A stretch of 64,000 nucleotides of DNA from Amphiscolops sp. MND2022 (taxonomy: Eukaryota), in contig OZ076409.1 of NCBI GenBank assembly GCA_964187785.1, forward strand, positions 48,610,001 to 48,674,000, given 5' to 3'. Numbering within the stretch: position 1 is the first letter of the stretch; each line of letters opens with the position of its first letter. The position numbers were made by a program, and so were the translations under genes. The notes under the pieces are model-generated. The model was given only the letters and a program-made list of their open reading frames with translations. It did no database searches and was not told where the DNA came from. Below, one piece after another: positions 730 to 5,050 of the stretch.

Positions 730-3700
730 TCAATTCTTCTTTGACTTCGCCGACTTTTTCTTTGTTCCACCTGACCCACAAGGAACCTCATCTTGCAGCT
801 TAGCCACCGCAACAGTAGCCTTTCCCAAATTCAATCGGGCTGTTGGCGATTCAGAACTGCTCGACGTTTGTGGCTCGCTTGCCACGTCACTGTCCTCTGT
901 AGGATGCAAGACACTAGGGCTAACTACCACACTCTTGTAAGCAGTCTCGAACTTGGCAAACCATTTGCCTCTCCTTAGTGCAGCCCCTCGGAGGAAATTC
1001 CAAATGGAGAATTTTCGGTCAGCTAACAACTCCCGTCCTCTCCCGAGCAAACGGAAAACTCGACTAATCGACCGAGGATCCTTGTATAAACTGGTTACAT
1101 TGGGCACCGTGTTGTACGAAATTTGAACACCAGCAACACATGAGCGGAATACCTCCTCATCAGGGCCCAACTCGGTCAAAGGAACTGTAAATTCTGGAGG
1201 ATAAGATATCTTAGGGGGCAGACACAGACAAGACAACTTGAAAAGCTGATGGAGTTCAGTCCGACATTGCAGCTCATAATGTGATGACAAATAAAGGAAC
1301 CAATCCCTGGAACGATCAACTTGTCCAGCACGAAACTTGGTGACCATGGCACGATATTGGCTCACCGCCTTTGCCTTGTCCGCAGAACTCAACCATCCCT
1401 TGGAAGCAAAGTACGTGGTCAAATGTTCCACAGCAGCAATGTATCGTTCTTCTTCACTGTCAAGAATTGTGGCCGAATCGAAGCATGACAAACCTTTTAC
1501 AAGGTCCGATTTCACGATAGGATGTGATAATAAACCCCGACCGAAAGCTTTACAAAATGGAATTGATTGTTCGATAAATTTACTCGGACGTGGTAACTTG
1601 CTGGATAATACAAGGCGATGATAGTCTGAGTTGAGCACGAACTGGTCAGGAGTTTTGAATGGCAAGTTGGGCTGACTCAAGTCCAATTGAAGGTACTTGT
1701 CCCACTCTGAAATACTCCCAAGGAAATTGTCTGGGAGAATGGATTGTAGCTGGCTGTAAACGAAGACAGTGTACTGGTTATAAATTCTGAACCCACCACC
1801 ATACTGGGAATACACTTCAGAGAATGCAGCTTCGTCTAAAATACAGCAGCTAATCAGAAGAAATAATTCAAAATTCAACCCGTACAACTACCGTGAATCA
1901 TCTACGGATACTCAAATCACATCACCTATTATGCTAAAGAACTAGTCAAAAAACATATACAAAGCAATTAATCATCCTCGTGCAAAAGTCTGAATGACGT
2001 GTACACGTGGCTTAGTAATTTCAGAACTAACCATACGGAAATATGCGGAAAATTGGATGACGCATAAACGTCACTATACAGATTTTCAATCTCAACAATA
2101 CATCATTATGCGGAAATACGAGTGCCGCATATACGGCAATATGCGGAAATGAGAGTGATGTGTATACGGTACTCTACAACTACCAGATTTTTCCACGCCA
2201 AGTATGGAGAGATCACACAGGAAATTCAAAGCTACTTCGCACGAGCATAATTATCACTAATTATGGAAAGTCAACAAAAGAAAACCAAAATTGAATGTAG
2301 CTGAGTATGAAATTGGAAAAATGTATTGTGGAAAAAAGATACAGAAGTGATAAAGTAAACGATACTCACAATGGTCCAGAACACAACGAATAACAAAAAG
2401 CCGAGCCAGATACGCAGTGTCAAGCCGGAAGCATTCATCCAAAGTGCTGGGCTGTAACACAAATTCAAAGACTTCAAGTCAAAAATATAAAATAAAACCG
2501 AAATTCATGATTCCAAAATAATACCTCTCTCATATGGAATCGAAACGTGGGGAGACGGGACACACAATTTAGATGATCCAGAACCCTGTCCCAGTGAATA
2601 GAGAGGGTCTCAATCAACATGGACGCCTCAGAAAGGGTGTAGGTCAAGTTAGAGACGCACTGCAACAAAACCATCCTCTTAAAGGAAACAATATAGATTT
2701 GGAAACCCTATAAAAGGAAAAATAATAACCTTGTAAAGCTCAGGCAGTGATTGTAACCACTCGCGGTCCATAGCGGTCCGTAGTTTCATCAGGAGAAATT
2801 CCAGAATCGTCCGGAAATCATGCCTTTCAAGAATTCGTGAAGTAGGCAGAGCCAGGCTTTTCTCTAACTCAAGTGGTCCAAAAGCATGGGCTACAGTTGG
2901 TCGTCGCCCTCCAGGCAAAGAAGTAGCAAGAGTTGCCGCAAGTCGTTCATCGCAATCGTAAATACATACACAGGATGGGGGGTTCTCAAGGAGGCTCAGA
3001 AAGGAAGAGATAAGCATAAAAATTTTCTTGGGCAAATATAAACCTCTTGGCCCAGTACCCATGCAGACTTGGTAGTGGATGTTGCCTGACCAAAAATTCA
3101 AGAACACTCTCACATCCGTCTGTGTTCTGTCGAAGCTCAGAGAATAGGCCCCAGCGGTAGCAATTGTGGTAACGCAGAATTGCATTAATTCCCGGAACAT
3201 GTAGGTGAGAATTGCCTAAAGCAACAGAAATATTACTACACAACAAGAAGACAAATCAAATCCCCATGCAAAATGAGTCTAATAGAGCGATTATGAGTCG
3301 AAAAAGTAGAAGAATGAAGATGGCAACGGAATAATACTAACAAAGAGTCGATGATTGCTCCAGTTGTAGATAGATGACTGCGAGTTATTCGGAGAAAGCT
3401 TTACCATATCCTCCCAGATGCCAATTAGGATGCTCACATGTCCCCCATGTCTCAGCCCGTGTTCCAAGAGACCGATTTGAGCCAGAACATCTTCGCTTGG
3501 GCTAGAATTTAAAGTGAGATCAGGGAGCCTCTCCTGTCCTACAAGAAGCCTGCAACCGTCTAACTGTGGAACAATTGGATGGGCAACTCGCGCAGCTCGC
3601 TTAGCTTCTTGAAGCTCCAGTCCTAGTAGTGCGCGTTCTTGTTTATCATACAAAGTCATTCCGGGGATCTCGAGCCTGATCCGGTGTTCTTTTGTCAAGT

Positions 3701-5050
3701 GAGTATCGGTCCGGTAATGCGAGAGTAATTCAAGGGCCCCTCTCGTTTTAAGGGAAAGTTCCACTCGACACACTCGGCACCACCAACGATGTGGGTCTCG
3801 TTCCTTATTTTGAGGCCCAGTAGCAAAGAATTGCAATACAGGGTGTTTCCGCAGCATCGCGGTTGTTAGCGAATATCTGGGACGTCGTCTTTTCCTACGA
3901 GAGTCGATTTGATTCTCACCTTCACTTTGCGTACCACTACCTTCTTGGGTAGTTTCTCGAGTATCTTCTTGGCTTGTGGTTGGAGCATCTCTCACAGGAG
4001 AAATTGGTGGATCTGCAATGACATTTAAAGAGAGCCGACTGCTAGTCGGGCCCCCTTCCACATTGAAGAAGTCGCGAGGGATTCTCTCTAGCATGTTGGA
4101 CAATGCCAGAACTTCTTGACGAGTCACAGTCACACTCCGATCATTCTGTGTTCCGGGTTCGACAACTGGTACTACATCTGGTTGACTTTCAGCATGTTCA
4201 TTAGGACCCTCTGCATCATTAAAATCATCAGCATTTTCTTCACAATCAACCATGGTGGGGGTGCTGCGCCGTGAATCAGGTTCTTCCTCTCGCCGTAGAA
4301 ACCTGGTAAAACGTGGGGATGGTGTGTGCAGGGTATTGACCGAAGCCAATTGTTGATCGTTTTTTTTTCCGTCGTTTGTGTTGTAATTGGAGTTTGTGGC
4401 TGTGAAGGGGACGTTAATTGACCTGAATTATCGGCCTCATTTTCCTTAGCTTCGTAAATGACTAACACAGATGGAGAAGAGATGTGATCTAATTCGTGAA
4501 TAATCAATTGTTCAGCTTCTTCGTTTTCGTTCTCCGCGTCTGTTTGGGGAATCAATTCGGGAAGTTGGCGACTGCACTCGCCAGGAGAAACGACTTCAAG
4601 TGGGGCGTAAGTTTTGACAGGAGAAGATTCTGTCGCTTTCTGAATTGAACCAGGTTCAACTGAAACAAATTGGTCAACTACTGGCGAATAGAAACAGAAG
4701 TGGACCGAAACAGCGGATATTGTTAAAAATTACCCAAAACCGGACGCGGCAGAGGGAAATGGCAAGATACTTTCCGTTCAAAACAAAACCGGAAGTTGAA
4801 AAACTTCAAAAGAACCTGAGAGTTGGTCGAAATAAATTAGATCAATTTCTTTTGCAGGCCTGGCCAGCTTTGCAATTTAAATTCAAGTGATCACGAAAAA
4901 CCCTAAATCTGAAACTAAACCTAAATTAAATTCAGAGTTGAACTCACCTTGTGGAGAATCAGGAGACGATTTGTACCCCCACGAAGAAGAAGGAAGAAAT
5001 CTCTTCGGAAGTTGATCTTTGCGCGATCGTCGTTTGTCAACAGAATCCAT
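730..5050 (-). CDS. Six-exon antisense gene, ~1080 aa, BED-like C2H2 zinc finger and weakly hAT-transposase-like C-terminus
   Basis: Exons 5050-4948, 4659-3342, 3215-2730, 2677-2525, 2451-2370 and 1835-730. All five introns are GT..AG with matching phases (1,0,0,0,1) and join ORF-track pieces 4172-4555, 3291-4349, 2679-3200, 2474-2674, 2257-2460 and 730-1887. One frameshift is needed at the T9 run 4360-4368. Motif WWCRVCRVELSLKTRGALELLSHYRTDTH. Minus-strand TATATAAA at 5121-5128. Confidence 0.75.
2145..2158 (+). promoter_or_regulatory. Putative polypurine tract of element A
   Basis: GGAAATGAGAGTGA immediately before TGTGTATA. The same GAGTGA|TGT junction precedes the LTR copy at 52493. Confidence 0.45.

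Follow-up and report, generated by a model that had tools for sequence, protein, structure and literature searches.

How can a gene interrupted by five introns persist inside an element that multiplies by reverse transcription, and what might such a gene encode? The question is raised by a 64,000-nucleotide stretch of DNA from Amphiscolops sp. MND2022 (contig OZ076409.1, positions 48,610,001 to 48,674,000, forward strand), hereafter the window, in which a minus-strand gene reads from an ATG at 5050 to a stop at 730 within a Ty3/Gypsy retrotransposon. By comparing related loci, we show that this Ty3/Gypsy lineage carries a fixed, conserved antisense gene of six exons. The extra genes that Gypsy elements carry in antisense lack a known origin and function; here one of them can be traced to a likely donor, a hAT transposase.

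The antisense gene and its Ty3/Gypsy host

The host is a 16.1-kb element encoding gag, protease, reverse transcriptase (RT), RNase H and integrase; no env match was found. It has the features of a Ty3/Gypsy element: a TG...CA pair of long terminal repeats (LTRs), which are 99% identical, a 5-bp target duplication, and gag followed by protease, RT, RNase H and integrase. The window opens with the 3' end of pol (3..554, plus strand), the gag, protease, RT, RNase H and integrase regions and the 5' LTR lying in the 7.1 kb before it. The 3' LTR (7532..8972, plus strand; 1441 bp, TG...CA) follows downstream, and the antisense gene sits between pol and this LTR, tail-to-tail with pol. Eight of 10 neighbourhoods, and one of three more distant ones, have an LTR pair flanking both pol and the gene. 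The 5-bp target duplication, which flanks the whole LTR element, is exact in 5 of 6 elements and matches at 4 of 5 letters in the window element. Of 75 inverted repeats, the 25 longest included no pair of terminal inverted repeats (TIRs) bracketing the gene, nor does the gene have the 8-bp duplication of its own that marks an active hAT, the duplication being 5 bp long and placed around the LTRs. The first-pass annotation had assigned the gene to the retroelement rather than to an independent hAT insertion, and these results bear it out. LTR divergence is 0.06-2.1% in seven elements, and several subfamilies have therefore moved recently, introns included.

The gene was first read as six coding blocks joined across five GT-AG introns (288, 126, 52, 73 and 534 nt) and encoding about 1080 residues. 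GT and AG are present at all of these ends, and the six-block structure stood; the third intron did not. Of 54 sequences, 7 have AG at its first-read acceptor (2678), and 52 have it 18 nt further on, at 2660, behind a pyrimidine tract. Intron 3 therefore spans 2660..2729 (70 nt rather than 52 nt, phase 0), exon 4 is 135 nt long (2525..2659), and the protein comes to about 1075 residues, the length (1075 aa) encoded by an unbroken copy. The other parts, all on the minus strand, are the coding part of exon 1 from the ATG (4948..5050), intron 1 (4660..4947; 288 nt, phase 1), exon 2 (3342..4659), intron 2 (3216..3341; 126 nt, phase 0), exon 3 (2730..3215), intron 4 (2452..2524; 73 nt, phase 0), exon 5 (2370..2451; 82 nt), intron 5 (1836..2369; 534 nt, phase 1) and exon 6 (730..1835; 368 codons). 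No seventh exon was found in the window, a non-coding exon at the 5' end being conceivable.

To assess these boundaries independently of the splice consensus, introns 2-5 were delimited in 27 loci by protein similarity alone, blind to GT and AG. GT was present at 25, 25, 26 and 26 of the 27 donors of introns 2, 3, 4 and 5, and AG at 26, 26 and 24 acceptors of introns 2, 4 and 5. Because boundaries set in this way land on GT and AG while intron lengths differ widely, the agreement exceeds chance. Once six misplaced rows were left out, exon 5 appeared as AG, 82 nt, GT in 36 of the 41 loci counted in clades 1-3, and it measures 82 nt in the best model of five loci of clade 4. In that clade, the farthest at about 20% identity, the best models have exons of 135 and 82 nt with phases 0, 0 and 1 in 4 of 8 loci. 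Clades 2-3 gave no or poor exon models in the same scan because intron 3 is their long intron. The positions of introns 2-5 are thus kept across four deep clades, while intron 1 was compared by DNA alignment with the 20 nearest loci. From these conserved splice sites we infer that the antisense gene is spliced.

Two stretches are conserved at the DNA level in their own right. Close copies scarcely differ in exon 5, and intron 1 equals the exons in conservation (0.85-0.86 in the three most diverged close copies), hinting at overlapping signals in both. Which intron is the long one depends on the clade (intron 5 in clade 1, intron 3 in clades 2-3), and motif clusters sit in it each time. Three distant relatives (P0219, P0201 and P0183) lack intron 2 and encode the finger region and core in a single continuous frame; of these, P0219 and P0201 stop at the point where intron 3 would begin.

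The window copy carries a single frame shift, mapped to a homopolymer run in exon 2 (4360..4368, minus strand), in agreement with the earlier view that an indel in a T9 run is its sole defect. The length of this run varies among close copies, only 2 of 14 sharing the length class of the window. After splicing, one of the 20 nearest loci gives one open frame unchanged.

Conservation of the gene and its linkage to pol

We searched the 1.07-Gb genome for further copies. Queries from the finger region and the last exon returned 7,201 and 6,579 first-look candidates, totals that are not copy numbers, and all those scored (150 and 127) matched. Copies are scattered over the large contigs C1-C13, and the lineage is very abundant and young. 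The first-pass annotation had named co-occurrence with this pol in other copies as a check, and the gene does recur there: two sets of further loci place it antisense beside pol, 23 of 23 in one and 33 of 35 in the other, or 56 of 58 distant loci, all chosen via the antisense gene, so that pol relatives lacking it fall outside these counts. Of the two exceptions, one lacks a pol in the 10 kb and a nested element splits the other. None of 60 loci shows the spacing of an intron-less copy.

Gene and integrase trees were compared for 55 of 61 loci, six without a domain being left out. Both recover the same deep groups, with four deep clades and a patristic Spearman correlation of 0.84. Among 11 strong integrase splits, 4 are identical in the gene tree and 2 conflict, both at the tips. 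Swapping of the gene as a cassette between elements was also considered, and is ruled against by the small number of these tip-level conflicts. By tree distances, the finger region changes about 3.5 times faster than integrase. Synonymous sites are saturated in 261/276, 176/190 and 259/273 pairs, with a median nonsynonymous divergence (dN) of 0.31-0.37; median omega is 0.04-0.31 in the unsaturated bins. Deep pairs in A5 give an omega of 0.74, with both rates near saturation. These rates indicate that the antisense gene is under purifying selection.

Relatives of the gene also occur on short ENA contigs. Their matches in this genome reach only 28-35%, which suggests that the family extends to other species; with P0083 and P0170 as queries, no close match was found in this genome. 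One locus from the metagenome scan, L101, proved to be a chance match in bacterial-looking DNA and was dropped.

Domain content and predicted hAT descent

The N-terminal region of about 285 residues is acidic and rich in Ser, Thr and Pro. It is followed, still within exon 2, by a basic stretch, a zinc finger and a helical segment. The finger (3699..3779, minus strand) has the form C-x2-C-x16-H-x5-H, and its C, C, H and H are kept in 45/45, 42/45, 44/45 and 45/45 sequences. Its description as BED-like holds at the family level: one of 29 relatives, the distant P0170, passes the Pfam zf-BED cut-off (22 vs 20.6 bits), while the finger of the window copy received no zf-BED score. Exon 3 encodes a predicted RNase H-like core (about 3146-2853) and then helices with a Trp that is invariant in 39 of 39 rows. 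Exon 6 is predicted to be all-helical (predicted local distance difference test, pLDDT, 66) before a low-complexity basic tail.

For structure prediction, we folded a clade-2 copy in which intron 2 is naturally in frame, with an alignment of 79 rows. In the resulting model (pLDDT 78; predicted template-modelling score, pTM, 0.46), exon 3 adopts the RNase H topology beta1-2-3/alpha/beta4/alpha/beta5. Foldseek placed the hAT transposase Hermes at ranks 1, 2, 9 and 10 (prob 0.98, E 0.04). VIA gave Hermes Z 7.0 and a root-mean-square deviation of 5.2 over 162 aligned residues, vs 71-116 in other rows. Alignments to six Hermes entries cover 112-163 residues; they reach back to the helix ahead of the core and forward into the region that follows it. 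The transposase of ISCth4, which we take to be kin to Mutator, came next (Z 6.3, 138 residues aligned). We therefore describe the exon 3 region as a predicted RNase H core with Hermes-like flanking helices.

PDB sequence searches gave nothing below E 0.03. Exon 6 had no match among longer proteins, and profile searches returned only unnamed family members without Pfam domains, plus distant relatives on short contigs. The Atlas search yielded leads only, at a score of 0.76, among them DUF659 for a distant relative; we take DUF659 to be linked to hAT. A C-terminal hAT-like helix had also been proposed. This was not confirmed: the C-terminal hAT domain PF05699 received no Pfam score in 24 or 35 members, and the last-exon model had no fold match. 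The earlier assignment of the protein as a hAT transposase derivative thus finds support in its N-terminal half, which has a hAT-like predicted fold below firm thresholds, but not in its C-terminal part. Overall, we consider it likely that the antisense protein is of hAT descent.

We also considered whether such a protein could still cut DNA. hAT enzymes require a DDE triad and CxxH (PMC4763223). Candidate DDE columns were placed by secondary structure in a 40-row alignment. The column at the end of beta1 reads E12/Q10/H4/A4/V3 of 40, that at the end of beta4 has G in 33 and D in 4 with no D in the preceding column, and no conserved CxxH follows beta5. At the positions given by secondary structure, the conserved triad and CxxH of an active hAT are thus not found. 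No ERxFS-like motif was seen after the C-terminal ELHQLFKLSCLCLP helix. The window copy carries Asp at both candidate columns, so the argument for inactivity rests on variation across the family. Cutting activity has likely been lost.

Repeat arrays, proposed role and alternatives

Several repeat arrays accompany the gene. A 33-bp repeat array lies upstream of it (5490..5668), a 33-bp ATGCGG repeat cluster occupies 2036-2180 in intron 5, and a third 33-bp array lies in the 3' LTR (7819-7964). The element contains 11 ATGCGG sites, vs a mean of 2.25 and a maximum of 7 in 200 shuffles, and most of them group at three places: intron 5, the region upstream of the gene, and the LTR. The arrays differ by clade, with units of 32-33 bp in clade 1, 39-40 bp in intron 3 in clade 2, and a different 32-bp unit in part of clade 4; the motif clusters in the long intron consist of ATGCGG/ATGCTG, or of CACGTG in clade 3. 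A TATA-like box precedes the ATG by 78 nt (5121..5128, minus strand), with CCAAT at -305. This box is a weak signal because it is kept in close copies only.

An antisense gene keeps its introns through retrotransposition since the packaged RNA is the other strand. We propose that, in the ancestor of the lineage, a hAT element landed behind pol in antisense orientation and that its ends then eroded. Its introns would have survived because the copied genomic RNA reads them backwards. A separate antisense mRNA would be made from an internal promoter and spliced; a precedent is maize Grande gene23, which has its own promoter, internal to the element and upstream of the gene (PMC7264820). The protein would bind element DNA through its finger, and its acidic N-terminal region would activate the element or counter silencing. 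Each of these activities has parallels elsewhere: the BED domains of hAT transposases bind short repeats (PMC10368747), a transposase that has been disarmed can serve as a sequence-specific activator (10.64898/2026.08.24.746577), and element-encoded anti-silencers are known, the clade-specific arrays here recalling the targets of VANC (PMC5735166). Taken as a whole, the account of a long-captured, disarmed hAT transposase retained as an accessory factor that binds DNA in the nucleus and helps to sustain transcription of the element seems to us reasonably probable. The self-activating or anti-silencing DNA-binding role is predicted and forms its weakest step. A stronger version, in which a whole DNA transposase was domesticated with its introns as a sequence-specific activator or anti-silencer acting on the element's own phased repeat arrays, would amount to a VANC-like system outside plants and a capture of class II by class I that helps explain the thousands of copies; we regard this version as possible yet doubtful.

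Several observations weigh against this account. No structural match is firm, since the Foldseek E value is 0.04, with none at 0.001, and pTM is 0.46; the Hermes Z of 7.0 is tied with that of an unrelated pantothenate kinase (Z 7.2, 85 aligned). The modelled clade relative is 40-46% identical to the window pieces, includes 23 intron-coded residues and lacks exons 4-6, and the separate model of the last exon (pLDDT 66) gave no match. No hAT Pfam family scored for any member, in the window open reading frames (ORFs) or the alignments. The candidate catalytic columns were placed by secondary structure rather than by residue-level superposition, and the window copy has Asp at both. The window copy is also frame-shifted, with a fully open gene at only 1 of its 20 nearest loci. 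Finally, clade 3 shares the finger almost unaltered and lacks ATGCGG arrays, carrying CACGTG clusters instead; this weakens the case for self-binding and suggests that the arrays may serve host factors.

The same hAT-derived protein might instead act at integration, joining the pre-integration complex or tethering it to chosen chromatin or sequence targets. Conservation of the whole protein, beyond the finger, would suit such a role, and a function in nuclear import or integration has been proposed for plant antisense ORFs (PMC7264820). We judge it unlikely, given that copies are dispersed over the large contigs and that six target duplications, a small sample, have no obvious common motif. 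Alternatively, the protein could act as a repressor by which the element limits itself or as a factor controlling copy number, or the main product could be the antisense RNA. Antisense transcription across a retroelement can contribute to silencing (PMC7264820), and the slow evolution of the finger, unlike that of an arms-race protein, fits a repressor. Against this stands the abundance and youth of the lineage, while a role for the RNA alone is ruled out because selection acts at the protein level and the splice sites preserve the frame; we hold this pair of readings to be distinctly unlikely.

The donor could also have been another RNase H-fold protein, either a Mutator/IS256-type transposase, as the ISCth4 alignment would allow, or a host ZBED-type gene domesticated before capture, since five introns fit a host gene equally well as a transposon. 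No active donor was found, though no genome-wide search for a TIR-bearing hAT was made. The BED-type finger, the length of the Hermes match, which exceeds all other structural matches, and the DUF659 lead for a distant relative speak for hAT, and a host ZBED gene would itself remain hAT-derived. A donor of another kind thus appears very unlikely. That an independent or still active hAT is nested in this one element, or that the frames are chance ORF fragments, has hardly any probability left: the Asp residues at both candidate catalytic columns would fit an active hAT, and this reading is largely refuted by the lack of a bracketing TIR pair in the 25 longest inverted repeats, the same position in 56 of 58 distant loci, the congruent deep trees and purifying selection.

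The closest counterparts of the gene are the antisense ORFs that plant Ty3/Gypsy elements carry between pol and the 3' LTR, namely Retand TRP28/PF04195, maize Grande gene23 and rice RIRE2 (PMC7264820, PMC11963269). They resemble the present gene in position, orientation, lineage-wide retention, nearby tandem arrays and a proposed nuclear DNA-binding role. The gene also falls under the aORF-3R definition for Gypsy elements, in loci that were picked by the gene. In contrast to the five introns and about 1075 residues found here, the word "intron" is absent from the main text of both papers, and the plant ORFs are described there as having no similarity to other transposons, whereas the present protein is predicted to resemble a full hAT transposase. 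PF04195, the domain of Retand TRP28, had no Pfam match in the antisense gene or its relatives. What is new here, relative to the plant antisense ORFs, is thus the introns and the likely transposase donor, in place of a TRP28 protein.

Other mobile systems offer partial parallels. With the hAT transposases Hermes and Kat1 (PMC10368747, PMC4763223) the protein shares an N-terminal CCHH finger, a predicted RNase H core between Hermes-like helices and a long C-terminal half predicted to be helical; unlike them, it conserves neither a DDE triad nor a CxxH where candidate positions lie, has no TIRs or 8-bp duplication, and is retrotransposon cargo. VANC, TnpA and disarmed transposase-derived transcription factors (PMC5735166, 10.64898/2026.08.24.746577) are comparable in that a mobile element keeps an accessory gene, non-coding arrays are clade-specific and catalytic residues are lost. 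Those factors serve DNA transposons or the host, whereas this gene is kept by a retrotransposon and its binding and anti-silencing role is predicted. The plant mobile domain (PMC5418596) is common to class I and class II (Gypsy, MULE), but its proposed flow is from Gypsy or host to MULE, and it is not a transposase body. The extra ORFs of rotifer LTR elements (PMC5408684) are a looser parallel. In the literature searched, which did not extend to Repbase or most subscription papers, no spliced gene of hAT derivation was described within an LTR element. One class of mobile element appears to have tamed an enzyme of another, and the case illustrates how a retroelement can retain a multi-intron gene through repeated reverse transcription. 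The many young copies and clade-specific arrays make the regulatory idea directly testable.

Other features of the element and window

A separate ORF of 359 codons (6496..7575, plus strand) has no Pfam family and a CxxC near its end. Its last 44 nt lie within the 3' LTR; related sequences occur in clades 1-3, with weak similarity in clade 4. The 3' LTR also contains the start of a gag frame (8342-8998, plus strand), which begins about 560 nt inside it; at the 5' LTR of intact copies, this frame appears to continue across the LTR end into gag. Just past the 5' LTR of the window element (L021, about 4260-4500), the LTR end and the start of gag are disturbed by an inverted duplication of 236 bp found in this copy alone.

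An unrelated Ty3/Gypsy element occupies 16286 to about 36280 (plus strand), with an RT that is 31% identical and a macro-like domain in pol; no member of the antisense gene family was found in it. It also carries a Monjiviricetes-type fusion ORF (31178-32377) and a MATH-domain ORF (33173-34027). Further along, inverted 16-bp repeat arrays and related inverted arms at 44879-45531 and 55985-62124 resemble the ends of non-autonomous DNA transposons.

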